IMG/VR virus record: IMGVR_UViG_3300044719_000253
Coordinates: 162,012-226,011 of that record
Direction: 5' to 3' (one strand)
Origin: a virus
Lineage: Duplodnaviria > Caudoviricetes
DNA length: 64,000 nt
Shown here piece by piece: positions 88 to 53,915 of the stretch. Both the position numbers and the translations under genes were made by a program. A model generated the notes under the pieces. It saw only the letters and a program-made list of their open reading frames with translations. It made no database searches and was not told the DNA's origin. Numbering within the stretch: position 1 is the stretch's first letter; each line of letters starts with the position of its first letter.

Positions 88-453
88 CCTTTGGTCTTCA
101 GGTAGGTCGTTAAGCTACCCCGCACCATTACGTGCCTAGCTCCAGAGTTTTCCTCTGGACGTTGAGACTATATCTTCACCCTCTCCCATGGAGGTGGGGT
201 GCTTCCCATTTCGAGGCCACTTGGTCCCCTATGGACATTTGTCCTAGTCGTTGAAGTTTATCCGTGGCCGCGTTGCGGCTTTAGGATCTTACCTGCTAAA
301 GAGAGTCTTCGACTCTACGGTTCCGCAATCCGCTCCGTTTTCAAACCATCACGAATGATCTTTCGATCTGCGTTGTGGTGGAGCAGCTCTCAGTCGGTTC
401 CAGCAGTTAGAGAAGATTCAGTTAAGCATTCCGGCTTAACTGGACCCCAGTTG
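88..453 (-). ncRNA. Group I self-splicing intron (366 nt, IA-like, no homing endonuclease ORF)
   Basis: Minus strand carries P (AACUGCUGGAA), Q (UUUAGCAGG), R (UUCAACGACUA) and S (AAGAUAUAGUC). P7 is GACUA/UAGUC and P3 is CUUCUC/GGGAAG, with a 9-bp P2. The IGS UGGGGUC pairs with exon 1 GAU (U.G at the splice site) and exon 2 CCCA (P10). Terminal G at 88. Removal restores the frame. Confidence 0.93.
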
Positions 454-3400
454 ATCATCCCGGTCAGAACCGGGAGCGAGCAATACAGCAGTTGACAGCA
501 GCGGTGCGCTACCCATCGTTTCTTTGTTATAGCGGCGTGTCACCCCGCGCAGCGACGTGAACTGCGGGTCGGCGCTGGTGTAGGTGTTAATCGCCACATC
601 CGAACTGTCGACGGTGTCGGTCGAAATCAAACCCATGTCGTTCTTGTGGTACGTCCGGGTTTCTTTCGTCATGGTGCGGCTATTGCGACCACCGGTGCCG
701 TTATACGTCACCGCTTCCTGTTCCTTCAGATTCTGGATCGGGTTGATCTCATTGGTCTGGGCTTTGGAAGCATCGGTCTGAATCGCCGTAAACACCGCAA
801 ACGGGTCCATGTTCAGTGGTGAACGCGATTTACCGGCACTGGCGTTGTGACGACGAATCGCCGTGACCATTTCCGAGTACACTGCTCCGGCCATCCGCTC
901 ATAACCCCGCAAGCGCATGTAGGCACCATCGAATTCATCCGGATGGTCATCGCGCACCAGCATGGTGCCGGCTCGGATCAACAATGCGCGCATGTCGGTG
1001 GGTTCATTCATCTCCACCAGAATATCGTGCGTGATCGGGTCGATGAACATTTGGTAGAACAAGTCCATCTCACGGATGTAACGTACCCCCAATCCATCGG
1101 CTTCCAGCACGTTCAGGTACACCTCTTTGTTATTAAACAGGTGTACATTGTAACGGCGGATGTGACGGTGGTATTCGTTAAAGCCACCCAAGAACAGTCC
1201 GGTGAGGTGATCGTTCTTATCAAAGATGATGGTCTCATCGTTGAACATCACCGGCTCTTCATTTAGACCCAGATCGAGACGGGTCCCTGCTGGGACACGG
1301 CGTACCTTGGACTTGAGCAGCGCCAGCATCGGTTCCAACCCCATCTCGTAGGCCAGAATCACCCCGACCGGAATCGATGCACCGCCGAGTTTCATCACCG
1401 CCACATCGACTGGCGCTTTCCGCCGATCCAACCCCACCAGTTCCTCAAACGACGGGAATTGGTACACGGCTGGTTCCCCCGTACGGCTGGGGCCGACGAT
1501 CGCCACGGTCGAGGATTTACCGATCAACACATAGTGCGTGCCCATGGTCGACTTACCAGCAATGATGGCGCCGTTCTGTTCGTACTTGGCCAGCGCCTCT
1601 TTGCCAAACAGCTCTTCCCGTTTGGTGTGATCGAACGACATGTTGAATGTCAGTTGACCGAGATCACGCGGATAAGCTTGTGGTGTCAGGGTAAAGCTGT
1701 TGAAGGCCGACGCGATCACCGAATACACCCGCGGCACGCTGACTTCGCTGTCCGACATATCGCCGGTGTGACCGTTGGTGATGGTTGGATCGGCATCGTC
1801 CAGCATCTTGGCCATCAGCCCGTTGGTCAACCACATGGCGTAGTTGTTGACTTTCTTTTCACTGCGACGGATGAAGGCTTTGCCGTAATAGCTCGTGAGT
1901 GCCACGGTATCCGGAGCGGTTTTACGGATCGGCAGATCGATCCGCTGTTTGCGCAGTGAGTACGACACGCCGTTGGCCAGGTACGTGCCATCTTCGCCCA
2001 CTACCGGCAGTTTGAAGCGCACAGTCGAAGCCGTACCATCCGTCGGCAACAGACGCACCGTGTAGATGTTGTACGCCCCCATCAGGTCTTCCACTGGCTC
2101 CACGTGATACTCAGTAACGCCATATCCGGCTTGGGCGAAACACATCACCATCGAGGCCACATCGCGTTGCATCACTTCGCTGGTATAACGCCGATCGAAA
2201 TCGAGCAGTGAGGACTTCAGCATCGACTTGTCCGGCACCGTAGGGATATCCGGAATCGCCGTGGATTCATTGACTTTGAGCGTCTCCGGAGGAATCGTGA
2301 TGTATTCCGCCACCGTCATCTTCGGATCGGGGGAAGGCATGGTCTTGTAAGCACTCGCCACCCGTTCGTAGTTACGATACTGCGCCGCCGTAATCGCCCC
2401 CGACAACATCCGGGCCTTGGCCACGCGCAACAGAGCTTCATCATGCGGTAAGCGCTTCAGGGGCGGGATCTCGGCTTCCACCAGTTGCGGGGTGTCGATC
2501 GCGGCTTGACGCTTTTCCAGCAGACTTTGTTCGGTCGCGGTATCGTCTACCGGCTCTGGCGTCAAAACCTTTTCCATCTCGGCCAATTCGGCATTGATGG
2601 TTTCGTCCAACTTCTCATCCACATGCACCGTATCGGCCGTGTCATCCGGTTTATCGTCCACTGGGCTACCCAGTTCTGCCTTCAGGGTCGCCGTCGGGAC
2701 CTTAGCGATACCCGTGGTCGGATCCACCACCGCCGGACCATTGCCGACCTTGGTGACGCTGGCCAATTCTTTCTTGAGGTCTTCCCGATCGTCCGCATCG
2801 AAAACTTGTTTCTCATGGGCATCGAGCTGATCGACTGGCGCTGCCGAGCGCAGCTGCGTGACCGACATGAAGAAACGCAGAATACGATTCTGGAAACGCG
2901 GGGGGTCGATCAGGTTCGGTTTGACGACTTCGTTCGGGAATAGTTCATCTTGGGTCGGTTTGCGCCAGGCGTCCAACATCCCGAGATTGACCGTGGTCCA
3001 TTGTCCTGATTCCAGGAACACCAGGTTAATCCGCGACAGGTATTGGCGCGGCACTAAACCCAACATGGATTGTTTGCGGTTAGCGCCGAACCATTTCCAC
3101 ACTTCGCCCAAGAACAGATGTTCATTGGAGAAGAACATGCGCATCAGACGCTGCACTGGTTTGCGGGGATCCATCGCTTCGTACTGTTGCAAGATCGAGC
3201 GCGGTGGCAAGACTTGCGGCAGATGCATCACCACAAATTGCGGCCGGTCCGTGATTTGGGCCAGACGGGCGATCTCGGTCCATTGGGTGCGTTCGATGTT
3301 GTACCATTCCAGATACTGGTTCATCGGGCCACGCGGGTAACGCACCAGGTGCGGCAGCATGCCGTAGTTATACACCAGCAGGCTGCTGGCGTCCGCCAAC

Positions 3401-3783
3401 ACTCGATCATCGACCGCATTACGGAAACGGCGATAGTGTTGGTGGTACTGCCGAATCACCGTGCCCGGTTGCACTGCTTGTTTGGTGGGTGTACCCAGAA
3501 TCCCCGGAGCCATGTTCAACACGTGATGCACCCAGATGTTGCGGGCCTGGGCTTTTTGCAAGACCTTGTCATCTTTCATGATGGCGGCTGAAAAGCCTTG
3601 CAACACCACATCCGAATCCGACGGACCGTACGCGGTTGGGCTCAAGTGAGCCATGTGCACAATGGCGCGCCGGGGCAGTTGAAACCGTTCCAGACGCCCG
3701 AACTTCGGCGTCATCAGTTGTTCAACGCGGCGCAAGCCATAGGTGCGATAAAAGACATTAAAATCGAGCAGCATAAAGCTCAA
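454..3783 (-). CDS. Virion RNA polymerase beta subunit, exon 1 (phiKZ gp178-like)
   Basis: 1110 codons up to DRDD. Beta-like motifs LRKQRID, LTSYYGK, NPIQNLKEQEAVTYNGTGGR and GLISTDTVDSSDVAIN. Adjacent to the beta-prime gene and tape measure as in phiKZ gp178-181. The ORF-track end at 436 is inside the intron. Confidence 0.88.
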
Positions 3784-5399
3784 TCTCCAGTGAGGTTATG
3801 GAGCACCAGTTCCACGGTGTGCACCGAGGTGCTGGAAATAAAACGACCATCGGTCCCGACATACGCGCGGCGTTTGGTGAAGTACTCTGCCACTTCGGCA
3901 CGGGCTTCGTCCGAGTACGCGATATTACAGTTCATCATGTCGCCATCGAAGTCACCACCGAGTTTCGCCAGGCGAGTCGGGTGTGGGGACATTGACTTCA
4001 TGTACGGACCCGGAATCGGGAATTCCAAGGCGATATGGCTATCGTCCATCGGGGCCCAGTTACGGTCCAATTCACGGCGCCGTTCCGCCACCGTGGTGGT
4101 ACGGACATACAGATTGGTGGGATAAATCGACCCCACCCCCGTGATCGGATAACGGGCGACGGAGGCCGGGTAAGTATTCCAGACACGGTAACCCGACAGA
4201 TAGATCAATTCGCAGAACGTGAGCGGATACACGTCTTCGCGTTTCCGGCTGGGCGGCAACTCATCGATGTCATTGAAAATCTTGAAGGTGCCATCCGGGC
4301 CTTTATAAATCAAGCCCAAATAATGCCCTTCGATTTCCATCGGCAGATCCCGCAATGACTCTTCCCGGAATGCATTGATGACTTTCTCCAACCCTTCGTT
4401 GGTTTGGAAGCGATCGTAGTATTCGTTCTTGAGCGGAATGGCTTTGCGCTTGAGGGTCTTCTTGTCGACCAGATACGCTGGTTGGCTGATATCCGGGAAC
4501 ACTTCTTTGAGCCAGCCATGCTTGAGTTGATACAGGGTGATGGGCAACATTCCTTTGATCAGTTGAAATAAACCCACCGCGGTGTCATTAAAGCCCGCAC
4601 TACCGTGCTCACCCAAATATTGGGTTTCCACAGGTAGGGCGGTGATCACGTTACCGGTGCCGTTCATCACACGACGGCTGGCCCATTTTCCTTGGATCAG
4701 TTTGTTCTTACCGTAGATCAGCCGTTCAAACAGTTCGTAGATTTGCACGAACGTAGTTTGCAGCTTAAAGCGTGCCCGGTCGATCAGTTCCGGATTGGAG
4801 CGAATCGCGATATCCGACAAGGTGTTGGCCACCGCCAGCAGTTGACGGTACATCGGGTTGATCTCGTCTTCGCGAGGACGACCATCGGCACCGATCTCGA
4901 CATCGCGTAAACCCGCTGGCAACACCAGCACTTTACTGGTCATGGCCACGGCTTTGTACTTCTCGATCAAACGAATCGCCAGATCCCGTTTGTCCGAATT
5001 GGTTTTCGAAAAATCGATTTGGTCCCAATACTGACTGAAGTAATGGTAACCGGTTTCGCCATTGACCGCGTCTGAACGTTCGAAATCCTTTTTCTCCGGA
5101 TTCCACAACGCGTATTCGTTGCCGGACATAATCCCGCCATACAGGCGCTTGAGCGAAATCAGGGTATTATAAATGATCGGGTGAAATACCCCGACTTTGA
5201 TATCGATGTAGGCATAGCGGCGGCACCGCACATCGTCACCGACCCGACCGAAGATTCGAGTCGAGAATAACCCCTCAGGATGAAAGTTGTGGGTGATACC
5301 ATCGTACATCGCCAACGAGGTAATGGGAAACAGCCCTGCCAGCTTGGCAGGAGTTAACGCCAAAATCTGGACGTTGAAGGGGACCATCGATTTTTGCAT
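3780..5399 (-). CDS. Virion RNA polymerase beta-prime subunit with catalytic motif (phiKZ gp180-like)
   Basis: Catalytic LGGDFDGD motif, EGLFSTRIFG and VLVLPAGLRD. 4-bp overlap with the beta gene. Confidence 0.92.
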   Translation of the reverse strand: MQKSMVPFNVQILALTPAKLAGLFPITSLAMYDGITHNFHPEGLFSTRIFGRVGDDVRCRRYAYIDIKVGVFHPIIYNTLISLKRLYGGIMSGNEYALWNPEKKDFERSDAVNGETGYHYFSQYWDQIDFSKTNSDKRDLAIRLIEKYKAVAMTSKVLVLPAGLRDVEIGADGRPREDEINPMYRQLLAVANTLSDIAIRSNPELIDRARFKLQTTFVQIYELFERLIYGKNKLIQGKWASRRVMNGTGNVITALPVETQYLGEHGSAGFNDTAVGLFQLIKGMLPITLYQLKHGWLKEVFPDISQPAYLVDKKTLKRKAIPLKNEYYDRFQTNEGLEKVINAFREESLRDLPMEIEGHYLGLIYKGPDGTFKIFNDIDELPPSRKREDVYPLTFCELIYLSGYRVWNTYPASVARYPITGVGSIYPTNLYVRTTTVAERRRELDRNWAPMDDSHIALEFPIPGPYMKSMSPHPTRLAKLGGDFDGDMMNCNIAYSDEARAEVAEYFTKRRAYVGTDGRFISSTSVHTVELVLHNLTGD

Positions 5400-44440: not shown

Positions 44441-44914
44441 TTATTCGACGATGATAGTGACCTTCGTGGCACCGAGGGCTTTCATGGCGTACTCGAAGTA
44501 CGGCCAGGTCAGGTACGAACTGGCGAAGTTGTCGCGCAGGTGATCCATGATCTGGTCGTGATCGAAATCATTGATCTGTTCACCTTCGACCATGGATTCC
44601 AGGGCATCGTTGAATGCTTTTTGGGTAACTTCGCCCGCCTTCAGAATTTCGCGAAACAGGAGCGTGAGTTCAGTCGACCCCATCATCAGATCACTGAAGT
44701 GCAGCTTCGACAGATCCGTGGCGTGCGTGATCACGACTGATCCGGCGCGTTCGAGCAGCATGCTATTGGTGAGACCTTCATCTGATGGGTCCATCTGTTC
44801 CCAGATGGGATCATCGACCGGTTTGACTTGGAAGGCAGAACCGTCGGGGTGTTGCAAACCACGTACCAGCATGGCTGCATAGTCGTGGCGTTCAGCAGGG
44901 AATTGAAGCGACAT
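44441..44914 (-). CDS. Hypothetical acidic accessory protein
   Basis: Leader motif plus AAGGA RBS, start MSLQFPAE. Confidence 0.75.
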   Translation of the reverse strand: MSLQFPAERHDYAAMLVRGLQHPDGSAFQVKPVDDPIWEQMDPSDEGLTNSMLLERAGSVVITHATDLSKLHFSDLMMGSTELTLLFREILKAGEVTQKAFNDALESMVEGEQINDFDHDQIMDHLRDNFASSYLTWPYFEYAMKALGATKVTIIVE

Positions 44915-44934
44915 GGCAATATCCTTGTTGTTGG

Positions 44935-45336
44935 TTATTGTTGGGCGATAATGGCGTACGCGTTGAAGAAATCGAAAGCTTGGTTTGCTTTGTCGGCGTC
45001 TTGGGTAAAATAAACCGGTTCTTGGCAGTACCACTCTACGGTATTGACCACCTTCGTGATCAGATAACCTTGAGTTGCCGAGCCAACGAACGCTAGAACG
45101 CGTTCCATGTCGATTAGGCGTTCATTCTGATGCTTTAAATTAATGTTCAGATCGTAAACTTCGATCTCGTTCGCCGATTCGGACAGTTCAGCGAGTTCCC
45201 GATGAGTTTTAAAAAGAATCTCTCGTTCGTTGTTACGTTCAGACAACAGTTCTTCGAGTTCATGCAGTTGATAAACATACTCGTTTTCGCTATTCCTTTG
45301 CAGAAAAATCTCGAACAATTCAAGTGCGGTAGCCAT
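44935..45336 (-). CDS. Hypothetical coiled-coil protein
   Basis: AAGGA RBS, start MATALELF. Confidence 0.75.
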   Translation of the reverse strand: MATALELFEIFLQRNSENEYVYQLHELEELLSERNNEREILFKTHRELAELSESANEIEVYDLNINLKHQNERLIDMERVLAFVGSATQGYLITKVVNTVEWYCQEPVYFTQDADKANQAFDFFNAYAIIAQQ

Positions 45337-45373
45337 GATGATATCCTTAAATGTTGTTAGTTGTAGGAAACGA

Positions 45374-45760
45374 TTAAGCGTGTTTGGTCCAGACCACGCG
45401 CTGTACTTCGCCGGAACCAGGAGAACGGCGGCGTTTGACCGCCACATCCCGCACTGGTTTCATGGCGGTGCGGACTTCCATTTGCTGTTTGGTGGCACGG
45501 CGATTTTCAATCGGTGGCGCTGATCCTGGCACTACGCGGTATTCACGCGCACCACCCCGACTTTCCCGTCGTGTAGAACGACGTTGTTCAATAAGCGCGG
45601 GATCGGCTTTACCTAACATCCGATACAGTGTCAATGGTGAATAATGACTTGTCTGTACTGCTTCGATAATTTCTTTACCCGTCATCCAACCTTTCCCATG
45701 CATCGCTTTCCAAATGCACGTGATCGGTCCATCGAACGGCAAAAATGCTAAACTAATCAT
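45374..45760 (-). CDS. Winged-helix-like protein, paralog of 45991-46401
   Basis: DGPITCIWKAMHGKGWMT...EYRVVPG. Confidence 0.6.
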   Translation of the reverse strand: MISLAFLPFDGPITCIWKAMHGKGWMTGKEIIEAVQTSHYSPLTLYRMLGKADPALIEQRRSTRRESRGGAREYRVVPGSAPPIENRRATKQQMEVRTAMKPVRDVAVKRRRSPGSGEVQRVVWTKHA

Positions 45761-45765
45761 GGTAT

Positions 45766-45981
45766 TCAATTTCGATGCCTCGGAAAATGAGCTGCTTCGC
45801 GTAATGCCCAAGCGGCGAATTCTTGACTGGGAATATGGTGCACCACATGTTCGTCTTCTTGGACATAATACACGTGGTTCGGAGTGAAGTCGCTATCGGG
45901 TCCGACAATCTGATAGATGTATCGCCTCACCCCTTTCTTGTTGCGATAAGTCTTTCCTTCAATGAGTTGAGCAACTTTCAT
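45766..45981 (-). CDS. Small hypothetical protein
   Basis: 71 aa, GKTYRNKKG..RYI...VYY...EFAAWA pattern. Confidence 0.65.
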   Translation of the reverse strand: MKVAQLIEGKTYRNKKGVRRYIYQIVGPDSDFTPNHVYYVQEDEHVVHHIPSQEFAAWALREAAHFPRHRN

Positions 45982-45990
45982 GTGGTTGGG

Positions 45991-46401
45991 TTAATTGCGT
46001 TTAGCGAACGCCATCATCATGGCGGACATGTGATCCACCGCCGTGTTCATGGTTTCTTTGCGGCGGGCTTCTTTGACTTCTTCTGCTTTCGTTACTGCCG
46101 CCGGCGCTTTGCGTGATTTCTTGTCCAGATCAACTGGCATTTCCACGCCACGTGGTACACGGTAATACTTGCTGGAACCGTACGAGGTCTTCGGCAAAGC
46201 GTTTTGGGTTTCCAAGACGCCGCGCGCCATGGCGAAGAGTTTGTTCCGTAGCGTCGTGTCAGCGTACGGGCAACTTGCGTCATGGAGCAGTTCCAGAACC
46301 TGAGCGCTGGTCAGCCAGCCTTTGTCTTCCATCACTTTCCAAATGCACGTGGCGGGGCCATCGGACTCCAACAGGAGCGGTTGAGTTTTGGTATCGTTCA
46401 T
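45991..46401 (-). CDS. Winged-helix-like protein
   Basis: DGPATCIWKVMEDKGWLT...YYRVPRGVEMP. Confidence 0.65.
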   Translation of the reverse strand: MNDTKTQPLLLESDGPATCIWKVMEDKGWLTSAQVLELLHDASCPYADTTLRNKLFAMARGVLETQNALPKTSYGSSKYYRVPRGVEMPVDLDKKSRKAPAAVTKAEEVKEARRKETMNTAVDHMSAMMMAFAKRN

Positions 46402-46476
46402 GTTCGTTATTAGAAGCTACAAGTAAAAGGAGAGGACTTCCCTTGACCACCTCAGAGAAATGGCCAAGAGAACACT

Positions 46477-46677
46477 CTACTTGCGCAGGGTGAAGATGCG
46501 GTGATTGATCACGTCGCACCAGCAATAATACATGTTGTCAGGAATACCACCCCAGTCCAGCATGGGGTAGCGTGCCGCTTCCTTCTTGATCATGCTGCGC
46601 GGCATACTGCGCGGGGCACGAGCGTTCTGGATGCGCGCTTTGTTCTTGGCAATGAAGTTCGGTTGCAGGTGCGACAT
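46477..46677 (-). CDS. Small basic hypothetical protein
   Basis: 66 aa with AAGGAG RBS. Confidence 0.65.
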   Translation of the reverse strand: MSHLQPNFIAKNKARIQNARAPRSMPRSMIKKEAARYPMLDWGGIPDNMYYCWCDVINHRIFTLRK

Positions 46678-46696
46678 AGATACTCCTTGTGTTAAG

Positions 46697-47545
46697 TTAT
46701 TGCGGCGGTTTCCATTCGCCGACGTTGGTGTTGAATTCCAAACCCTCGCGTTTTACCCAGTCCTTGATTTTCCGTTCCGTGGTTTTACCCACACCAACGA
46801 TCTTCGACAAGTCTTTGGGATGCATCGCGATCAACTGGCCGACATAGCGCACACCATCGTTGGCCAAACAGCCGCCGACATAACCCACCAGTTCCGGGAT
46901 ATCGGCGATACGTTGATTCCAGACCGCCTGGGGTTGGTTTCTCCGTTCTGCCGGAGTGAGCCAGCCTGCCGTGTCGGTCTCCAATTTGAGGCCGTGCGCG
47001 GTGAGTCGCTCGACGATGTTGGCGAGACCTTTAGCGCCCAGTTGTGGAATCTTACGCAGTTGCGCTTCCGAATAACGTACGAGTTGGCCGACGTAATCCA
47101 GGGAACCGATGGGTGTACCGCACAGCGATTCCGTCTGCAAGCAGTGATAAGGTCGCTTATCCAACCCCAACGCTTCGATCTTTTGATCCCAGATCCATGG
47201 ATGACTGATGACCGGTGATTTATCGTCGGTGACTGGAGTTTCATCGTGCGGGGTCGACGGTTGGACGTGACTCAGTTGGAGACCGAGTTCGATATTCAGT
47301 GCCGCGAGAATGTTTTCCACATCGCGGTATTCGAGCTTGTCTTCCAGGAAATGCTGATGGGTCAAATTCGCCATGAGCTCAGCGCGGAACCCGGTACGTT
47401 CACGCTCGCTATATCTGTTCTCGAAATAGCTGCGCAGGAGAGGGAGCAATTCTTCCCCCGCCAGATTTTTCATCCTGAGGGCTTCGAAGATCAGAGCGCC
47501 GTACAGTTGAGAAAAATTGTTGATGCCACTGATATTGATACGCAT
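46697..47545 (-). CDS. Protein with two tandem RNA polymerase alpha-CTD-like domains
   Basis: IEALGLDKRPYHCL...VGQLVRYSEAQLRKIPQLGAKGL...GLKL and a second copy YVGQL...LSKIVGVGKTT...GLEF..GEWKPP. Both parallel alpha-CTD [42 protein letters not shown]..ENWPP. Confidence 0.85.
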   Translation of the reverse strand: MRINISGINNFSQLYGALIFEALRMKNLAGEELLPLLRSYFENRYSERERTGFRAELMANLTHQHFLEDKLEYRDVENILAALNIELGLQLSHVQPSTPHDETPVTDDKSPVISHPWIWDQKIEALGLDKRPYHCLQTESLCGTPIGSLDYVGQLVRYSEAQLRKIPQLGAKGLANIVERLTAHGLKLETDTAGWLTPAERRNQPQAVWNQRIADIPELVGYVGGCLANDGVRYVGQLIAMHPKDLSKIVGVGKTTERKIKDWVKREGLEFNTNVGEWKPPQ

Positions 47546-47560
47546 GGTGATATCCTTTCG

Positions 47561-47977
47561 TTATTGAGGTAAGCATTTTTCGAGAAGCTTGAGGAGACGC
47601 GTAGCAGCTTCCTCACGTTCATCTTGATCGACCCAGTTGTTGCGATACCAGAGCATGGCGTGGTACAGAAGTGGAACATAACGATCTGGGACTTCCATGG
47701 AGAAATCACCCAGCCAACGCTGCACCGAGTTGACTTCCCCGTTCACCATGTCGAAGCATTCGATCAACATAAATGCTTGACGGCGATTTTCGACCGCCTC
47801 TTTACGCTTCTCAGCCATCTCAGGGTGAGCTGCCGCCATCTCGATCGACGCACACATCTCGGTAATGTGTCGCGTCAAAGCGTAGCGGATGATCTTTTTA
47901 TCATCCTCGCTCAACGTAACGCCAGCGATCGTGACTTGAATCACACCGGTCGAAAGCTTTCGAATAGTAACGTGCAT
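47561..47977 (-). CDS. Hypothetical protein
   Basis: 138-aa ORF with GAGGA RBS. Confidence 0.7.
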   Translation of the reverse strand: MHVTIRKLSTGVIQVTIAGVTLSEDDKKIIRYALTRHITEMCASIEMAAAHPEMAEKRKEAVENRRQAFMLIECFDMVNGEVNSVQRWLGDFSMEVPDRYVPLLYHAMLWYRNNWVDQDEREEAATRLLKLLEKCLPQ

Positions 47978-47991
47978 CGTGGTTCCTCGAA

Positions 47992-48438
47992 TTAACGGCT
48001 GGGGTTGAATTGCGGCGTGTAAGCCATCCCGCGTTGATTGGCGTTGAGGGTGGCTTCTTTCATTTTAACCCGCAGTTCTTCACTCGGTGTTGGGGAGCGC
48101 CGCTCGAATTCAATCCAGAAGCGTCGTGTGGCGCGGCGGGTGGCCAGCAATACGAAGTACGGGGTCTCGTCGGTAATCTCGCGCGCCGCGTGATTCTTGG
48201 CCATGGCGTCGAGATTGAGCCAGCCTTCTTTGCCAGCTTTATCGACATACTTAAACGCCATACATGCCGACAGACGCCGAAAGAATGGCCGCCCGATCGC
48301 GCGGATCACTTTGATGGTTTGAACTTCACCGGTTCCCACCATGCCTGGACCGACGAGTGGGAAGTCTGCGTGGATCAGATAAAACGTTTTGCCAGCCTTG
48401 ATGTCACGCAGCTGGACCTTACCTGCTTGGGTTGTCAT
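47992..48438 (-). CDS. Hypothetical basic protein
   Basis: Leader motif plus AAGGA RBS, start MTTQAGKV. Confidence 0.7.
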   Translation of the reverse strand: MTTQAGKVQLRDIKAGKTFYLIHADFPLVGPGMVGTGEVQTIKVIRAIGRPFFRRLSACMAFKYVDKAGKEGWLNLDAMAKNHAAREITDETPYFVLLATRRATRRFWIEFERRSPTPSEELRVKMKEATLNANQRGMAYTPQFNPSR

Positions 48439-48463
48439 GTTGTTCCTTGTTGTTGATTTTAAA

Positions 48464-48670
48464 TTAATACCAGGAGTCGCCGCGCGCTTCGTCGGCCGCT
48501 TGAACCCAGCCATCGTTCCAGGCGGACTCTTTGGCTTCATCGACACCCTTATGTGGATTTCTTTGGACATAATAACGGTAGGCTCGACGACCTTCTTCAC
48601 GAACAACGTTCAATTCGATTTCGCGTTGAGTCATGTAGATCCCATTAGACAAAATGGTAGACATTTCCAT
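48464..48670 (-). CDS. Rmf/CrpP-like small protein
   Basis: EEGRRAY...NPH...SAWNDGWVQA resembles Rmf G..A...CPY...W..GW..A. Leader motif plus RBS. Confidence 0.5.
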   Translation of the reverse strand: MEMSTILSNGIYMTQREIELNVVREEGRRAYRYYVQRNPHKGVDEAKESAWNDGWVQAADEARGDSWY

Positions 48671-48686
48671 AGTTCCTTGTTGTTGG

Positions 48687-48908
48687 TTATTGGGCGAGCT
48701 TTTCTGCCAGCTCAGCGGCTTTCTGTTGATCGAGACTGGCTTGGAACCACCATTCCGGAATGACCTGGGGATTCCCGCTGCGGGCGACTTCTTCCGATTC
48801 GATGGCTTTGTCGAGCCACTCTTCAGCAGTGTATTTCGTGATCGGTACACCGAGTCGTTCTTCAACGACCCGAGCGCGCATTTTATCGAGTGCGGAAAGT
48901 TCAGCCAT
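48687..48908 (-). CDS. Small hypothetical protein
   Basis: GAAGG RBS, start MAELSALD. Confidence 0.65.
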   Translation of the reverse strand: MAELSALDKMRARVVEERLGVPITKYTAEEWLDKAIESEEVARSGNPQVIPEWWFQASLDQQKAAELAEKLAQ

Positions 48909-49179
48909 GTTGACCTTCTTTTTGTTTGTTAAAATACTTGCTAAAGAGCCCATTCGTCGCGTTATCCAGTGCTTCGACCATGTGGTCTGCTGCGCCGGGA
49001 TCTGTGACCATTGCACCAAAATCCGTCATCAACCAATTGGTGCCACTGGTTTCTGGCAGATCAATATTCACACCACCCATAGCGGGAAATAACCGCAGCG
49101 CCTGGCGGGTCGCTCGGGATAACCGAGCTTTCTTTTTGTATTGTCGTTTATGCGCTTGCGCTTTTTGTTGGTTATTCAT
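48901..49179 (-). CDS. Hypothetical protein with basic N-terminus
   Basis: 92 aa with AAGGAG RBS. Confidence 0.7.
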   Translation of the reverse strand: MNNQQKAQAHKRQYKKKARLSRATRQALRLFPAMGGVNIDLPETSGTNWLMTDFGAMVTDPGAADHMVEALDNATNGLFSKYFNKQKEGQHG

Positions 49180-49188
49180 TTGCGCTCC

Positions 49189-49509
49189 TTAAAAGAAATG
49201 GTACCAACGTTTCAGGCCTGCCTTCAGGAAGGTCAGAGGAATCCCGAGTTTGTCGGCGAGCTGTTGTTGGGTCAGATAGGCGCCATAGGCAAAACGATCG
49301 ATCTCGTCGCGACCCACCCGACGACCTTCGAAGATGGCATCAGTGATGAGTTGTACGGCACGCGCACGTTGATCCGCCAGACGTTTCATCTCTTGCTCCC
49401 GTGAAGCGAGGATCAGTTGCTCAGCAATACCGAGCATGCCGTGCACCACGCCGATGACCGCCGAATCCACGTAAGGCTCGACGTTCCGTTGTGCGGTATT
49501 GGATTTCAT
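49189..49509 (-). CDS. Hypothetical protein, possible C-terminal HTH
   Basis: 106 aa with GGAGG RBS and YLTQQQLADKLGI. Confidence 0.65.
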   Translation of the reverse strand: MKSNTAQRNVEPYVDSAVIGVVHGMLGIAEQLILASREQEMKRLADQRARAVQLITDAIFEGRRVGRDEIDRFAYGAYLTQQQLADKLGIPLTFLKAGLKRWYHFF

Positions 49510-49539
49510 ACTGCCTCCCTCTAGTGATATAGGCGCGAA

Positions 49540-49587
49540 ATAAAAAAGAGCATAGTCCGCCTAGGGGCAATGCCCCTAGGCGTATGC
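49540..49587 (-). terminator. GCATA...TATGC family terminator
   Basis: 11-bp stem CGCCTAGGGGC/GCCCCTAGGCG with A-tract (U-tract on minus). Confidence 0.75.
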
Positions 49588-49594
49588 TGTCTGG

Positions 49595-49813
49595 TTAGTG
49601 CAGGGTTTCGATGGTGCGGTTGACTTGTTCGAATGTTTCACTCAGGGCTTGGTTGTAAGCTTGCGATGCCAAGGCGAAGTAATGTTCGAACTGGGCTTTG
49701 GCAATCTCGACCAAATCGGAGTCAGCACCCCAAAGTTGTTCGACCCGTTCGATATTGGTTTGATGGAACTTGGCTTTCGCCAGCAGATGTTCTGCAGTTT
49801 GCATGGTTAACAT
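49595..49813 (-). CDS. Hypothetical helical protein
   Basis: AAGGA RBS supports start MLTMQ at 49813. Confidence 0.65.
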   Translation of the reverse strand: MLTMQTAEHLLAKAKFHQTNIERVEQLWGADSDLVEIAKAQFEHYFALASQAYNQALSETFEQVNRTIETLH

Positions 49814-49836
49814 GTAACGATTCCTTGTGTTAATGA

Positions 49837-50184
49837 TTAATACGCCATCGGAAACGGACTCATGAGGAAATAGAGTAACCACCCCCATAACGCGACTGTA
49901 GTGATTACGACAATCGGCTTCATGTTGGGGTAACTTGTCCATATACCGGCAGCTAAAAACACACCTGACAACACCATGACACCGGTCAGGAGAAGTGAGG
50001 TGTTTGGAGCGAAAAATGTATCAGGTGGATAGTTGTTGTACAGGAACTCCCGAGTGTCCATTGGAACCAACCCGTAGAACAAAATGATAAAAGCGCTTGG
50101 TCCAAGAAAGTACATGATCGCAGAACTACCAAGCAATAGCCCAGAAAACACGGCTTCAATGATGGCACTGACTGAAACTTTCAT
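49837..50184 (-). CDS. Multi-pass membrane protein
   Basis: 115 aa with 3-4 hydrophobic segments. Visibly more AT-rich than the core genes. Confidence 0.7.
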   Translation of the reverse strand: MKVSVSAIIEAVFSGLLLGSSAIMYFLGPSAFIILFYGLVPMDTREFLYNNYPPDTFFAPNTSLLLTGVMVLSGVFLAAGIWTSYPNMKPIVVITTVALWGWLLYFLMSPFPMAY

Positions 50185-50201
50185 GATGACCTCGCTGGAA
50201 G

Positions 50202-50354
50202 TTAACCGCCGATGGCGTGTTTGAAAGCAATGATCATGAGCGCGGTCACGATCCCGGTCACGATCAGGGTGATCTTGCGGTCGCTCCGGTCACGGTGCTC
50301 GGCAGCGATGGTTTGACCGATGGCGCTGTTGTTGAACTCGTTAATTTGGTACAT
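50202..50354 (-). CDS. Small membrane protein (50 aa, absent from the ORF track)
   Basis: Leader motif plus AAGGAG RBS. Translates to MYQINEFNNSAIGQTIAAEHRDRSDRKITLIVTGIVTALMIIAFKHAIGG. Confidence 0.75.
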   Translation of the reverse strand: MYQINEFNNSAIGQTIAAEHRDRSDRKITLIVTGIVTALMIIAFKHAIGG

Positions 50355-50468
50355 GGTGAAACTCCTTGTGTTGTTGGTTATAGGAAAGAAAATGTTTGTG
50401 AGAAACCGCAGCCTCTCAAAACCATTCTCACTCTAGGCCACCCGCAGGCAGCCTAGAGGGATGAAGGA

Positions 50469-51740
50469 TTATTCCAGTTCGTCGATCAGCGACAGGGTAA
50501 TGTCGTTGGCTTGGTGAACCGAGAACGGTTCGCCGTTGATGAGGATAGTCCGGACCACCGTCACGTACTTGCCGGGCACACCGTCAGCAACAGCCATGCG
50601 GTACCCGAGGTTTTGTTTCCTCAGTTCAGCCAGCAGTTTGCGGGCTTCCTTGTAGCTGAAGCGCTGACCCTTGATCGTGATGCCGCCGACTTCGACCAGC
50701 GGTACCTCTTTCGGCTTGTCCTCCGAAGCAGCTTCGACCAGATCCGGCAGATTGCTCGGCGTCGGAATCGGGGTTTCGTTCGGGTTGACGAATTCACCGA
50801 CCGGGGTATCCGGTGCCGTTTGGGGGTCAGCGCCGACGGGGAAGTCGGTGTTCTTTTGGAACACTTTGGATTGGATGGCGTACTCGGTTTTGGTTTGCAT
50901 CTCGGGTTCCTGGTTGAGCGGGAGTTGCGGTTGCGGGGTGGGGGTTTCCAGCGGGATGTTGGGTTTATACGGTTCCAAGCCTTCCGGCATCGGCACATCA
51001 TCGTTCAGGCGATACTGGAATTCCTGATAGTTCGACTTGTCGACGGCGACCATGTCACGCTTGACCATGAAGCGCAGATGGTAGCGAACGATGTCCGACG
51101 GATAGAAGTCTGCCAGCAGCGTCACCAGATCCGCCGACTTGTACCATGCATGGTCCATCATGGTCTTCCACAACGCGACCCGGACCGGATCGTTGGGTTC
51201 GACCACGAACACCTTTGCCTGTTTCGGTTCAGACCAGTGTACTGCCGTCGGCTCGGGTTCACCGGCCACAAACAGCGGATTGGTCGGCATTTGTTGCGGT
51301 TGGTTGTCCTGGGGTTGCATGATGGTCTCCGAAGTGTCGATGGTGCGGCGTTTGCGGTAGGTGATCGGCACAGCCGCGCGAGTCGGTTGCAGTACGATTT
51401 CGCTTTCCTTGACCTTGATCACCGGCTTGGTGTCATTCGTGAAGTCCGGACGCTTGGCGCCTTTCTTCAGTTCGTAGAGCACCTTACTTTTACCGCCATG
51501 CGCTTGCGTGAACATGTTGCGCTTGTGCAGCATCACCACCATGCGGCGATTGACATCGTCGCGTTTATACCCGAGCACCGCCAAGGCACTCACGACTTCG
51601 TTGACAGACCGTTTGCGGCCGTCTGCCATCAAGTCGTAAATCGCCAAGTCCAGATACAAGGGCGTGGTCGCCGCTTCACCGGTCATCTTGAGTTGGGAAA
51701 AATCCGATTGCAGCGTAAAGGTTTGTTGTGCTGGTTTCAT
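50469..51740 (-). CDS. Multi-domain protein with two winged-helix-like domains and Pro-rich linkers
   Basis: Leader motif plus RBS, start MKPAQQTF. Domains IYDLMADG...LYEL and LWKTMMDHAW...QYRL..VPMP. Confidence 0.7.
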   Translation of the reverse strand: MKPAQQTFTLQSDFSQLKMTGEAATTPLYLDLAIYDLMADGRKRSVNEVVSALAVLGYKRDDVNRRMVVMLHKRNMFTQAHGGKSKVLYELKKGAKRPDFTNDTKPVIKVKESEIVLQPTRAAVPITYRKRRTIDTSETIMQPQDNQPQQMPTNPLFVAGEPEPTAVHWSEPKQAKVFVVEPNDPVRVALWKTMMDHAWYKSADLVTLLADFYPSDIVRYHLRFMVKRDMVAVDKSNYQEFQYRLNDDVPMPEGLEPYKPNIPLETPTPQPQLPLNQEPEMQTKTEYAIQSKVFQKNTDFPVGADPQTAPDTPVGEFVNPNETPIPTPSNLPDLVEAASEDKPKEVPLVEVGGITIKGQRFSYKEARKLLAELRKQNLGYRMAVADGVPGKYVTVVRTILINGEPFSVHQANDITLSLIDELE

Positions 51741-51872
51741 GATATCCTTGTTGTTAGTTATACCAAGTAGGTTGTCACCCACCTGATTGGAATACTGAAT
51801 AATTTTCTTACCCAATTATGATGCCTAAAGCGCATCGGTTAGAACCACCCGGGCCCTAACCGATAAACTTTA

Positions 51873-52151
51873 TCAGGACACCTTGTGAAATTCATAGCCT
51901 TCACTCCAGCTCTCATTACGGTACTCCCAACGAGAGTCGCCACCGCACAGCTGCATCAGGTTAAACACCTGGCGTTGGTAATAATCAACGCACATATAGC
52001 GGCCGTTGTGCTCGAAGTGAAACCCGATTTTATCCAAATCGGGCATGGCACGAATTTCTTGCAAGGTGTAGGTGCAGCCTACTTTCGGATAACGAGTTTG
52101 TTCCTTCCATAACGTTTGCACTTTACCCAACAGCGTGGTAACGACACTCAT
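51873..52151 (-). CDS. Hypothetical protein
   Basis: 92 aa with AGGAG RBS. Confidence 0.7.
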   Translation of the reverse strand: MSVVTTLLGKVQTLWKEQTRYPKVGCTYTLQEIRAMPDLDKIGFHFEHNGRYMCVDYYQRQVFNLMQLCGGDSRWEYRNESWSEGYEFHKVS

Positions 52152-52168
52152 GTTAAGCTCCTATGAAA

Positions 52169-52261
52169 TCAATTAATGAATTGCTCGACAATGTCCGACA
52201 AGCCCGACAACAGCAGGGCGGTACAGATGACGATGAAGATAATGCGGGTATGCAGTTTCAT
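52169..52261 (-). CDS. 30-aa membrane peptide (absent from the ORF track)
   Basis: AAGGAG RBS. Translates to MKLHTRIIFIVICTALLLSGLSDIVEQFIN. Confidence 0.65.
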   Translation of the reverse strand: MKLHTRIIFIVICTALLLSGLSDIVEQFIN

Positions 52262-52285
52262 GATGGTTCTCCTTTTTCGTACAGG

Positions 52286-52603
52286 TTAAAATTTCTTCAC
52301 GATGACGTAGGCTTGCAACTCGCCTTGGCGGGGACAGTAAAACGCTCCAGCGATATTGCGGTCATACGCCAGATGTTCATTCTTGATAAAGCTCAAGCGG
52401 TCCACCATTTTACAATGGCGCATCGCGAGAGCGGTACGACCCAACGACCGGCGGGTCATATTCTTGGCCTGGTACGTCACGAATTGCACCCGGTGTTTGT
52501 GGTCTGACAAACGGTAGGTGCGCTCTTGATGACCGAGCGCAAAATGCGAAAACAACAGCAGATACAGAAATACAGCGATACGGATGGGAAAGTCTTTCAT
52601 CAT
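52286..52603 (-). CDS. Putative secreted or membrane-anchored protein
   Basis: AAAGGA RBS and hydrophobic N-terminus IAVFLYLLLFSHFALG. Confidence 0.65.
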   Translation of the reverse strand: MMKDFPIRIAVFLYLLLFSHFALGHQERTYRLSDHKHRVQFVTYQAKNMTRRSLGRTALAMRHCKMVDRLSFIKNEHLAYDRNIAGAFYCPRQGELQAYVIVKKF

Positions 52604-52619
52604 GTTTCCTTTTGAATAA

Positions 52620-52919
52620 TTAATGATACACGGAGTTGAGTGCATGGTAGGTGATCACGGCTTCTTCCAGCTCATCGACACGTTCACCATACTGCAAACT
52701 CATCCGTTGTGAGGCCAGGTGATACTCGCTGGCTTCGAGCATCGCCGCGCGGGTGAAAGCATGATGCTCCCCATAGCGGTTTTGCGCGTCAACCAAACGT
52801 TGCACCGACTTCCGGGCTTCGCCATAAGCGTAATCGCCGATCCATTCCAGAATGTCCACAACCACTTCCAGACGATCGACTTGTTGCAAGGCTTCTTGTA
52901 CCAAGGCGTGCATGATCAT
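52620..52919 (-). CDS. Hypothetical helical protein
   Basis: About 99 aa with AAAGGA RBS. Confidence 0.7.
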   Translation of the reverse strand: MIMHALVQEALQQVDRLEVVVDILEWIGDYAYGEARKSVQRLVDAQNRYGEHHAFTRAAMLEASEYHLASQRMSLQYGERVDELEEAVITYHALNSVYH

Positions 52920-52936
52920 TCCTTTCAATGTAGGGG

Positions 52937-53173
52937 TTATTTGGCTTGAACCGCGTAATACACTTTGTCGAATGATTTACCAAACACTTCGTTGTATGCC
53001 GTACGACCCTCTTTCAGTTGTCGCCACACGGCTTTGAGCCAGCCGGAGGGGAACATGTGGTACAGCACCATCACTCCTAAGTACAACAGAGTGATGAGGG
53101 TGAACAGTTCACGCAGAATGATCCCAAACGTGAACAGCAGATACAGTGCGACTTCAGTGGAGAATTGTTTCAT
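52937..53173 (-). CDS. Small membrane protein
   Basis: AGGA RBS, start MKQFSTEV, two hydrophobic segments. Confidence 0.65.
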   Translation of the reverse strand: MKQFSTEVALYLLFTFGIILRELFTLITLLYLGVMVLYHMFPSGWLKAVWRQLKEGRTAYNEVFGKSFDKVYYAVQAK

Positions 53174-53186
53174 AGGTGTTTCCTGG

Positions 53187-53414
53187 TTATTGCTTGGTGA
53201 GGTTTTCCCACAAGGCCTTGGACAAGCGCTGTAGCGCCAGCGCCGCCCTCGTCCGATCGTTGATATGTGCTTTAGGTGCACCGCGGTATAATGTTTCGCC
53301 ATCACTCGCCGCAGTGACTTGCTGAATCAAATGCAGATCTGTTTTCAGTTCTTCCTTTTGCTCATCCGTCAGAGAGTCAAACAGATGAATCATTTTGCCG
53401 ATCGTGGTTGTCAT
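53187..53414 (-). CDS. Hypothetical protein
   Basis: Leader motif plus AAGGA RBS, start MTTTIGK. Confidence 0.7.
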   Translation of the reverse strand: MTTTIGKMIHLFDSLTDEQKEELKTDLHLIQQVTAASDGETLYRGAPKAHINDRTRAALALQRLSKALWENLTKQ

Positions 53415-53494
53415 GATAAAATTCCTTAAGTGTTGTTGGTTATAAGTGCAAAGTGCATCCACTAACCTGCTCGTAAACAGGCTAGGAGATTACT

Positions 53495-53851
53495 TTACTT
53501 GTACGAATCGGGGATCGCGAAGATGTGGTTAAACTTGTCGATCGAATCGATCGTGCCAAACGTGAGAAAACCATTACGGCTCATCGACGCCAACTGCGCC
53601 ATCCTCGGATCGCAGCAATAGCAGATTTGACCTTGGCTATTGTTGAACATCACAAGGGCACCATCCAGCGTATTGATGGCCAGAAATGGATACCCTTCCA
53701 TTGATTTACCCCGCAGCACTTGATCGCGCTTGAGGGCTTTGACTTCTGGATTGAACGTAGCTTCAAAGATACGCGGAACGATAGCGCTGTACGAGCGCAC
53801 GTTGTTGGTATCGTTGTAGCGATCGTTAAAAGCTTTGAGAATGTCTTGCAT
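53495..53851 (-). CDS. Hypothetical protein
   Basis: 118 aa with leader motif plus AAAGGA RBS. Confidence 0.75.
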   Translation of the reverse strand: MQDILKAFNDRYNDTNNVRSYSAIVPRIFEATFNPEVKALKRDQVLRGKSMEGYPFLAINTLDGALVMFNNSQGQICYCCDPRMAQLASMSRNGFLTFGTIDSIDKFNHIFAIPDSYK

Positions 53852-53883
53852 GATAGATCCTTTCTGTTGTTAGTTATGAGTTG

Positions 53884-53915
53884 CATCCGTAAGGGTTTTA
53901 TCGCCCTTACGGATG
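53884..53915. other. Perfect 12-bp intergenic hairpin without U-tract
   Basis: CATCCGTAAGGG/CCCTTACGGATG. Confidence 0.6.

Follow-up and report, generated by a model that had tools for sequence, protein, structure and literature searches.

A phiKZ-related jumbo phage encodes a 282-aa protein that is built as a family-specific N-terminal domain (N-domain), a disordered linker, and two tandem alpha-CTDs, alpha-CTD1 and alpha-CTD2, carried on a single chain. The gene lies within a 64,000-nucleotide stretch of DNA that we analyzed as a whole and call the window. Both copies are genuine alpha-CTDs, and the polar residues that are conserved across the family are, judging from the alignments, the DNA-contacting ones. 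Taken as a whole, the best explanation, which we hold tentatively and with somewhat less than even confidence, is that this is a clade-specific early DNA-binding protein that would modulate transcription at UP-like DNA; DNA binding as such is the better grounded part of this explanation and appears rather likely. The coordinates of the gene, its domains, and its neighbors are collected in Table 1.

Table 1. Features of the alpha-CTD gene and its surroundings (positions are those of the window)
Feature	Position	Strand	Evidence or remark
N-domain/linker/alpha-CTD1/alpha-CTD2 gene (P0001)	46697..47545	-	282 codons plus stop; ATG start; ORF translation
N-domain (aa 1-88), four- to five-helix bundle	47282..47545	-	Domain-only AF2 model, pLDDT 85.4
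Disordered acidic, Pro/Thr-rich linker (aa 89-113)	47207..47281	-	pLDDT <50 at residues 90-113
alpha-CTD copy 1 (aa 114-200)	46946..47206	-	33 bits alone; TM 0.92 to 1lb2_B
alpha-CTD copy 2 (aa 203-282)	46700..46939	-	25.8 bits alone; HHH_5, 28.1 bits
Shine-Dalgarno sequence AAGGA	47553..47557	-	8 nt 5' of the alpha-CTD gene's ATG; read directly
Upstream neighbor, 138 aa, no known family	47561..47977	-	BLASTP/alignment E 4.6e-47 to 3.7e-11
Downstream neighbor, 66 aa, no known family	46477..46677	-	94% identical in the sister phage
Leader/early-promoter-type motif TAAC(C/T)AACAAC	48679..48689	-	Nearest full copy upstream of the alpha-CTD gene

The identity of the two repeats was established by profile and structure searches. 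PF03118 (RNA_pol_A_CTD) matched the protein in two stretches with 55.5 bits (E = 4.6e-15; gathering threshold, 23.8 bits), and in a six-frame search copy 1 (33.0 bits) and copy 2 (25.8 bits) each exceeded this cutoff singly. This bears out the first-pass annotation of the locus, which had described alpha-CTD-like repeats at aa 119-196 and 209-280 and had proposed HMMER against PF03118 as a check; the envelopes that we obtained, aa 114-200 and aa 203-282, are similar. The two copies recognize each other by BLASTP (E = 4e-6), share the N-cap (I/V)W(D/N)Q(K/R)I, and are separated by a short spacer of about 10 residues. The AF2 model superposes on the E. coli alpha-CTD chain 1lb2_B, which comes from the CAP-DNA complex, with a target-normalized TM of 0.92, an rmsd of 1.7 A, and 30% identity over a Foldseek alignment of 80 columns, and the rows for 3n4m, 9zum, and 8y5t reach TM 0.86-0.91. 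The phage copies thus share the (HhH)2 fold and the conserved hydrophobic core of the E. coli domain (RpoA 249-329; PF03118; 1lb2, 1coo, 3k4g, and 3n97), and a flexible linker to another domain is common to both proteins. Unlike E. coli RpoA, the phage protein has no alpha N-terminal dimerization and assembly domain (PF01000/PF01193) and carries two tandem copies on one chain, and copy 1 differs from the E. coli domain by an 8-residue insertion (aa 139-146) after helix 1. The earlier description of the pair as "dimer-mimicking" holds as an analogy only, since in the whole-protein model (pTM 0.35) the two copies take up no fixed position relative to each other. Copy 1 is the best-conserved part of the protein, with a mean pairwise identity of 42% compared to 31%, 26%, and 17% for the other parts (the linker being lowest, at 17%), and the second copies of P0001 to P0004 form one clade (support, 98/95).

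Comparative data indicate that the gene is real and conserved. At least eight lineages, diverged down to 27-39% identity, keep an intact frame in the corresponding place; synonymous change is saturated, with core and DNA-contact residues kept, and relative to the sister phage synonymous differences occur in 52 of 105 conserved codons. Translation starts 15 nt past the stop of the upstream gene, and only a partial copy of the leader motif (AATAAC-GAAAGGA) is found at this start. Two ORFs on the + strand, 46586-47218 and 47246-47572, overlap the gene; since homology is confined to the minus strand, they were taken as shadow frames.

Which of the known surfaces of an alpha-CTD the family has retained can be read from a comparison with E. 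coli RpoA (strain MG1655). Arg131 of copy 1 (codon 47153-47155) occupies the position of R265 (KRPYHCL versus VRSANCL in E. coli), Gly170 corresponds to G296, Lys172 to K298, and Trp195 to W321, with His134 at the N268 position. Copy 2 has Tyr222 and Gly225 at the R265 and N268 positions and retains the GVGK hairpin (G253 = G296) and Trp278. Across the complete 265 determinant (R265, N268, N294, G296, K298, S299, and E302), the residues are R, H, Q, G, K, G, N in copy 1 and Y, G, G, G, T, T, K in copy 2; the determinant is lost in copy 2. The first-pass annotation had pointed to the G.G.K turn and the terminal Trp signature, and the G296 and W321 equivalents are indeed present in both copies; it had also assigned an R265-type Arg to copy 1 only, and this Arg turned out to be invariant in the family. 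Among first-type copies, the R265 equivalent is present in all 12 lineages, the G296 equivalent in every case, and the N268 equivalent in 9 of 12.

The N-domain, overlooked in the first-pass annotation, is the constant companion of the alpha-CTDs in this family. Pfam gave no match to the N-terminal 95 aa, and a Pfam search of 11 N-domains at E-values up to 10 returned no HTH family (HTH_3, HTH_26, HTH_31, or related). Because alpha-CTD matches mask the N-domain in a whole-model Foldseek search, this domain was folded alone. Its top structural rows are mostly XRE/HipB/CI/C-protein HTH domains: VIA-align of aa ∼8-92 gave Z 5-6 over 65-70 residues with mostly XRE-type HTH domains in the top rows, superposing the N-domain on Cro/C1 HTH domains such as HipB, the TP901-1 CI N-terminal domain, controller C proteins, and HicB3, and HTH_3/HTH_26 clusters of the ESM Atlas were matched at TM 0.50-0.58. 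These fold scores sit within the range of chance helical-bundle matches, the Foldseek E-values are 0.8-4, and an ESM Atlas feature search was uninformative (best score, 0.78); XRE-type families lead the match lists from two independent structure predictions, and the models place the fold weakly nearest to the Cro/C1-XRE HTH. In contrast to a Cro/C1 HTH, the phage domain has no HTH Pfam match, and its would-be recognition helix (aa ∼46-52) is the most variable stretch, with indels between members and lower pLDDT; the conserved columns are hydrophobic core positions only. N-domain HMM matches were confined to proteins that also carry alpha-CTD(s), and on this evidence the domain is specific to the family.

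An exhaustive HMMER search recovered the orthologues P0002 to P0005 (E = 1e-48 to 4e-29), and at least seven further lineages, all uncultured, have a full-length or a positional orthologue. None was found in phiKZ, FLC9, RP12, or Xoo-sp14; INPHARED phages gave no match to the 8-kb neighborhood by megablast or to the protein by tblastn, PHROGs holds no family for the protein, a word-indexed search of 5.8 billion proteins returned only the self-match, and an IMG/VR pattern scan found the sister genome only. Outside the family, the protein is closest to multi-repeat alpha-CTD proteins, with 27-34% identity and E-values from 1e-21 to 1e-10. Among the non-RpoA relatives from metagenomes, P0006 carries 11 alpha-CTD copies, and P0011 and P0015 are fused to σ70 region 4. 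These metagenomic tandem proteins resemble the phage family in having a repeated alpha-CTD module detached from RNAP and differ from it in their partner domains and repeat numbers, none of them having the N-domain of the phage family. Recent capture of a host rpoA was ruled out on account of the low identity (phmmer against solved RpoA chains reached only E of around 1e-4) and of nearest relatives that are not RpoA. A search of the literature on phage or non-RpoA alpha-CTD proteins found no relevant paper.

The gene belongs to a block of small genes on one strand that includes three winged-helix-like paralogues, and its neighbors in the block look regulatory rather than devoted to replication or repair. 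The 138-aa upstream neighbor is homologous in six of the seven lineages examined, has no Pfam or PDB sequence match, and is probably cotranscribed with the alpha-CTD gene. Conservation of the 66-aa downstream neighbor is unusually high, and Pfam gave nothing significant for nine neighboring proteins. The leader motif nearest upstream presumptively marks the start of the transcription unit that holds the alpha-CTD gene. Between 44.9 and 53.9 kb, and on the minus strand only, the window has seven one-mismatch copies, each followed by AAGGA and a start codon, and an eighth match (49164-49174) falls inside an ORF; the genome has 16 exact copies of TAAC(C/T)AACAAC on one strand only, compared to 0 for the reversed control pattern. 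A similar kind of motif marks early operons in jumbo phages that encode an RNAP (PMC7598289). By this analogy the alpha-CTD gene would presumptively belong to an early block, and the protein would probably be made early in infection. UP-like A-tracts were not seen upstream of the seven leader motifs (A+T of 0.40-0.56 compared to 0.46 for the window), and a scan of the block for σ70-type promoters found 6 compared to 9.5 expected. Since σ70 promoters are not enriched, host-RNAP promoters in the block are unsupported, and together with the lack of A-tracts this means that no phage DNA target is evident.

These observations suggest how the protein may work. The N-domain, with its weakly XRE-like fold, would probably mediate pairing or docking and not act as a classical recognition HTH, and the disordered linker would tether it to the two alpha-CTD-type (HhH)2 domains. 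alpha-CTD1 could grip the A/T-rich minor groove and the backbone through Arg131, the N268 position, and Gly170, much as the host alpha-CTD does, and alpha-CTD2, which lacks the Arg and the Asn and keeps the hairpin glycine and a lysine, would probably add nonspecific backbone contacts or avidity. The protein would then most likely occupy promoter-upstream, UP-like DNA and thereby modulate transcription, in the preferred version by competing with the host RNAP's alpha-CTD at host promoters during takeover. Consistent with DNA binding, constraint within the protein is strongest on alpha-CTD1, the recurrence of alpha-CTDs outside RpoA follows the pattern of a reusable module, and the short spacer and flexible N-domain tether resemble the tethered-CTD design of alpha itself. 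Occlusion of UP-like DNA, an idea already raised in the first-pass annotation, is compatible with the conserved R265 and G296 equivalents and with an N268 equivalent in most lineages. The narrower claim that host UP elements in particular are occluded is possible, on the unlikely side. The probable nuclear life style of the phage weighs against the explanation as a whole: the genome encodes a chimallin homologue (matching phiKZ gp54; E = 8.1e-19 over residues 17-569), from which phage and host DNA probably reside in separate compartments. A tubulin (PhuZ) signal in the genome is weak, at 13.1 bits.

Several features of the DNA-binding surface could also be read in favor of a more general role, in which the (HhH)2 modules bind DNA without sequence preference and organize, protect, or process phage DNA, in the manner of the HhH arrays of repair, recombination, and topoisomerase proteins. 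K298 plays an important part when E. coli alpha-CTD binds UP elements, yet its equivalent is present within the family in this protein alone, and the S299 position of copy 1 is Gly. These unconserved UP-specific contacts, together with the His at the N268 position of this protein, count against our DNA-binding reading as well. An architectural or DNA-metabolic role would further fit copy 2, which scores as a generic HHH_5 domain, and the long alpha-CTD arrays that exist elsewhere. We nevertheless consider it unlikely, because an invariant minor-groove Arg and a usual Asn268 are specific to alpha-CTDs rather than to generic HhH modules, the neighboring genes are small and regulatory looking, and the gene is limited to a narrow clade.

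The main idea of the first-pass annotation was that the protein is a decoy for host activators. In this reading the free alpha-CTDs would soak up host factors such as CRP-type activators, σ region 4, or NusA, and activator-dependent host transcription would in consequence be switched off. The alpha-CTD fold is genuine, a chain with two copies recalls the pair of CTDs in an alpha dimer, the presumptive early block is where takeover genes are expected, and jumbo phages encoding an RNAP are known to have genes directed at host transcription (PMC13282480). The protein-contact surfaces point elsewhere. The 287 determinant, which contacts CAP (T285, E286, V287, E288, L289, G315, R317, and L318), is represented by S, E, A, Q, L, E, D, T in copy 1 and by H, P, K, D, L, N, N, V in copy 2, and the 261 determinant, which contacts σ region 4 (V257, D258, D259, and E261), by I, E, A, G in copy 1 and by I, A, D, E in copy 2; the 261 positions vary across the family, and neither determinant is conserved, be it relative to E. 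coli or among family members. R317 and L318 are replaced by a family signature, TDTGxW, with charge reversal: of 13 first or single copies, 11 have Asp or Asn at the R317 position, mostly reversing the charge. TDTGxW is one of two signatures of the family's own, the other being PxIWDxxI, and its conserved patch could be a protein-binding surface, a point against the DNA-binding reading. Moreover, identity to the E. coli alpha-CTD is about 30% (the alpha-CTD of the phage's own host might still be mimicked) and phmmer scores are modest, and the family evolves fast, with 34-39% identity between orthologues. Its nearest outside relatives are multi-repeat alpha-CTD proteins and not proteobacterial RpoA, so that it does not represent a recent copy of the host surface. 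Titration of host activators is therefore disfavored, with the determinants defined in E. coli not conserved, and we rate the decoy as distinctly improbable. Because the equivalents of R265, G296, and mostly N268 are kept and the 261 and 287 surfaces are not, DNA binding remains the favored reading.

The phage's own transcription machinery offers another setting. Split RNAP beta/beta' genes at 436-5399 (phrog_3148, E = 6e-299; phrog_2986, E = 8.5e-204), along with the chimallin homologue, identify the genome by homology as that of a phiKZ-related (Chimalliviridae-like) jumbo phage. The first-pass annotation noted that phiKZ-type RNAPs have no alpha subunit; the literature agrees (PMC7598289), and the alpha N-terminal domain (PF01000) had no match in the 226-kb record either, compared to matches in 14 of 14 control genomes. 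As the genome has no alpha N-terminal domain anywhere, the protein cannot serve as the assembly subunit of an RNAP. It might instead act in trans, with the N-domain docking on the virion or nonvirion RNAP of the phage, or on a promoter factor, and the CTDs contacting upstream DNA. Such a role would suit an alpha-less enzyme; the order of docking domain, flexible linker, and CTD is alpha's own, the N-domain is never found without alpha-CTDs, and a conserved partner gene lies alongside in most lineages examined. However, phiKZ, FLC9, RP12, and Xoo-sp14 share the RNAP type and lack the gene, so the protein cannot be a general RNAP subunit; the gene does not adjoin the RNAP genes, an A/T-rich upstream element was not seen at the conserved motifs of the phage, and no protein of this type is present in the purified nvRNAPs of phiKZ and AR9 (PMC7598289). 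We regard a trans-acting role of this kind as improbable. Its more specific form, in which the N-domain, perhaps together with the 138-aa partner, would sit on the phage RNAP or promoter and the CTDs would supply a UP-like contact, is very doubtful; if true, such a detachable alpha-CTD would give back, in trans, a function that disappeared from jumbo-phage RNAPs together with alpha. That the ORF is nonfunctional, either a chance ORF or a decaying captured rpoA fragment, has as its sole support the gene's absence from cultured relatives and is refuted, with next to no probability left, by the conservation data, namely, a frame kept in at least eight lineages, saturated synonymous change, and a proper ribosome-binding site.

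UP elements and class I activators dock on bacterial RNAP mainly through the alpha-CTD, and phages are known to attack this domain chemically: the Alt and ModA proteins of T4 ADP-ribosylate R265. Alpha is also reported to be cleaved as a result of the action of Rac, an acetyltransferase encoded by a phage (cited in PMC13282480). A free-standing phage alpha-CTD would represent another strategy, in which the phage competes for the DNA or the proteins that the domain contacts. With its small size, soluble-looking and modular build, and one diagnostic Arg, the protein makes the family readily amenable to tests. Proteins with alpha-CTD repeats also abound in metagenomes and are entirely uncharacterized. 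For a phage with alpha-less polymerases and probably a nucleus, the presence of such a protein would mean either that host promoters are still manipulated or that the alpha-CTD has been recruited for DNA transactions internal to the phage.

P0001, the protein under study, consists of an N-terminal domain, a linker and two RNA polymerase alpha-CTD repeats (copies 1 and 2). Against Pfam, it matched PF03118 (RNA_pol_A_CTD) over two stretches with 55.5 bits (E = 4.6e-15); the second of these also clears the generic HHH_5 model. When the complete phage record was searched in six frames, PF03118 matched only these two copies, which individually scored 33.0 and 25.8 bits (gathering cutoff, 23.8 bits). 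The copies align with each other (E = 4e-6), and the only PDB sequences matched by phmmer are RpoA chains, headed by the E. coli alpha-CTD 1coo (E = 2e-4). An AF2 model built from a five-member family alignment (pLDDT, 76.7) comprises a helical N-domain (residues 11 to 82), a linker disordered at residues 90 to 113 (pLDDT, <50) and a C-terminal part of two helical domains; its pTM is 0.35, and the domain arrangement is therefore not fixed by the model. Foldseek returned RpoA chains almost exclusively, including 1lb2_B, the E. coli alpha-CTD from the CAP-DNA complex (target-normalized TM score, 0.92; rmsd, 1.7 Å; 30% identity). The first-pass annotation, which had recognized a tandem alpha-CTD protein here, is thus upheld in both sequence and fold, and its coordinates, repeat boundaries and residue statements proved correct.

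The N-domain is tentatively called XRE-like in fold, from structural models, and no working helix-turn-helix (HTH) is claimed. Modeled by itself (pLDDT, 85.4), it finds mostly Cro/C1-XRE HTH domains as top matches in an exhaustive VIA-align comparison (Z of 5 to 6 over 65 to 70 residues; top rows include HicB3, prophage Lp1 protein 11, HipB, TP901-1 CI, C proteins and ClgR), and the ESM Atlas yields HTH_3/HTH_26 clusters (TM, 0.50 to 0.58) from its own ESMFold model and the AF2 model alike. We stop at the fold because, at an E value as lax as 10, none of the 11 N-domains compared from the family matched an HTH Pfam model, and because the would-be recognition helix is the most indel-prone stretch of the domain in the family alignment.

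The window forms the final 64 kb of a 226-kb IMG/VR record with an estimated completeness of 83%. The record carries beta-type genes of a multisubunit RNAP in split form (phrog_3148 and phrog_2986). Apart from a phiKZ nuclear-shell homologue (see the table), there is only a weak tubulin/PhuZ-like signal (G000:C1:129682-129945 on the full record; 13.1 bits). A comparison of RNAP beta places the record closest, among cultured phages, to Burkholderia phage FLC9 (41.6%), followed by RP12 and RP31 of Ralstonia (∼37%) and Xoo-sp14 of Xanthomonas (36%). The multisubunit RNAPs of jumbo phages are without alpha (PMC7598289), as had been stated at first pass for phiKZ-type enzymes, and a profile search of the phage record found no alpha N-terminal domain (PF01000). 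A less likely reading would have P0001 serve the phage RNAP, which has no alpha, as an alpha-CTD acting in trans; it is weakened by the absence of the gene from relatives with the same polymerases.

A word-indexed protein search recovered P0001 itself only. Exhaustive HMMER searching found four full-length orthologues (34 to 39% identity; 269 to 274 aa; E = 1.8e-48 to 3.8e-29) and ∼120 additional proteins with alpha-CTD repeats. The orthologue P0002 occupies the syntenic position on a complete 272-kb sister genome, and further positional orthologues (P0025, P0007/P0126 and P0020/P0128; contigs of 54 to 274 kb, two places without DNA) lie in the same small-gene block adjoining a fibre-type module, with a 2OG-oxygenase/DUF6065 cassette recorded at the P0002 and P0126 loci only. 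A domain search found no PF03118 in FLC9, RP12, Xoo-sp14 or phiKZ, and the gene is therefore accessory and belongs to a single uncultured clade.

In an N-domain HMM search, this domain occurred only in proteins also bearing alpha-CTDs, which number one (P0008, P0010 and P0125), two, or two with a weak third stretch in addition (P0007). The second copies of P0001 to P0004 and the single copy of P0010 form one clade (support, 98/95), so that the duplication is older than the divergence of these lineages. In the alignment, the single alpha-CTD of P0008 (a metagenomic relative of 184 aa, from a Logan contig) is copy-1-like in its first half (Arg, Asn and a short insertion) and copy-2-like in its second (AMHP...TT motif and WKPP end). 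This looks like the product of a deletion, with YIGQLV, a conserved segment, as the site where the two repeats recombined. Beyond the family, a large, uncharacterized set of non-RpoA metagenomic proteins (among them P0006, P0011, P0012, P0015 and P0022) carries 3 to 11 tandem alpha-CTDs, in some members fused to sigma-70 region 4, Sel1 repeats or IF2_N; P0014 and P0017 (∼320 aa), with two or three copies, bear the source name "RNA polymerase subunit alpha".

When the family's 24 alpha-CTD copies were all aligned to residues 245 to 329 of E. coli RpoA (MG1655), the two repeats proved distinct. At the R265 position, the first copy has Arg in 12 of the 12 lineages with a first-type copy, and the second has mostly Tyr, Met, Ser, His, Leu or Asp. 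Asn at the N268 position is found in 9 of 12 first copies (His in P0001) and is mostly lost from the second; Gly at 296 is present in all first copies and mostly kept in the second; Lys at 298 occurs among first copies in P0001 only and is not kept in the second. The 261 (sigma contact) and 287 (CAP contact) determinants are conserved in neither. At R317, 11 of the 13 first or single copies have Asp or Asn; the position falls inside TDTGxW, a signature specific to the family. Mean pairwise identity is highest in alpha-CTD1 (42%), followed by alpha-CTD2 (31%), the N-domain (26%) and the linker (17%). Because R265 and G296 are kept and the 261 and 287 determinants are not, selection seems to have maintained the DNA-contacting core in the first copy but not the host activator and sigma surfaces. 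The same determinants speak against the earlier proposal that the alpha-CTDs titrate host activators, which is disfavored.

Features of the alpha-CTD gene block and of the wider phage record
Feature	Position	Strand	Observation
P0001, alpha-CTD gene	46697-47545	-	ORF, 282 aa
Upstream gene, no known family	47561-47977	-	138 aa; homologous in 6/7 lineages, 27-50% identity
Downstream ORF, no Pfam family	46477-46677	-	66 aa, basic N-terminus; identity 94% in sister phage, 73% at L011, 43% at L004 (loci of relatives)
Three winged-helix-like paralogues	45374-45811, 45991-46401, 50469-51815	-	BLASTP E 7e-16 and 4e-6
phiKZ gp54 (chimallin) homologue	G000:C1:117276-119021 (outside window)	-	E 8.1e-19, 25% identity, residues 17-569

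The P0001 ATG follows an AAGGA Shine-Dalgarno site by 8 nt and the stop of the upstream gene by only 15 nt; the product of that gene is a candidate functional partner. Seven small minus-strand genes (window positions 44900 to 53900) are preceded by TAAC(C/T)AACAAC, then AAGGA and the start codon; an eighth one-mismatch copy (49164 to 49174) sits within an ORF. Genome-wide, the motif has 16 exact copies, on one strand only (reversed-pattern control, 0), in about five clusters spanning G000:C1 4178 to 215887, several downstream of stem-loops. In kind it matches the conserved A/T-rich signals of early operons read by the virion RNAP in jumbo phages that encode RNAPs (PMC7598289), and it probably serves this phage clade as a leader or early-promoter signal. 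In the block, sigma-70-like promoters were not enriched, and no UP-like A-tracts were seen upstream of the leader motifs. The P0001 gene is preceded by a partial copy only and probably belongs to a transcription unit starting at 48689. The downstream 66-aa protein shows 94% identity to its sister-phage counterpart, compared to 39% for the alpha-CTD protein and 39 to 44% for flanking proteins; about a third of its conserved codons (21/62) differ synonymously, and it is thus under very strong purifying selection. The three paralogues share a winged-helix-like module (GP.TCIWK.M..KGW), and a protein at the corresponding position of the sister phage (L003 11142 to 11363) matches PF26109 WHD_BrxR. 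Small DNA-binding proteins thus look plentiful in the block.

Literature searches turned up no description of alpha-CTD proteins other than RpoA, in phages or elsewhere. The best-supported reading of the sequence is that P0001 is a DNA-binding protein, probably made early. Like the host alpha-CTD, its alpha-CTD1 would use Arg131, the R265 equivalent, to contact the minor groove of A/T-rich DNA, and alpha-CTD2 and the N-domain would supply avidity, docking or pairing. Transcription is the process most likely to be affected, through occupation of promoter-upstream DNA, and we favor a version in which P0001 competes with the host alpha-CTD at UP-like elements; its candidate targets are the host nucleoid or phage DNA within the probable nucleus.
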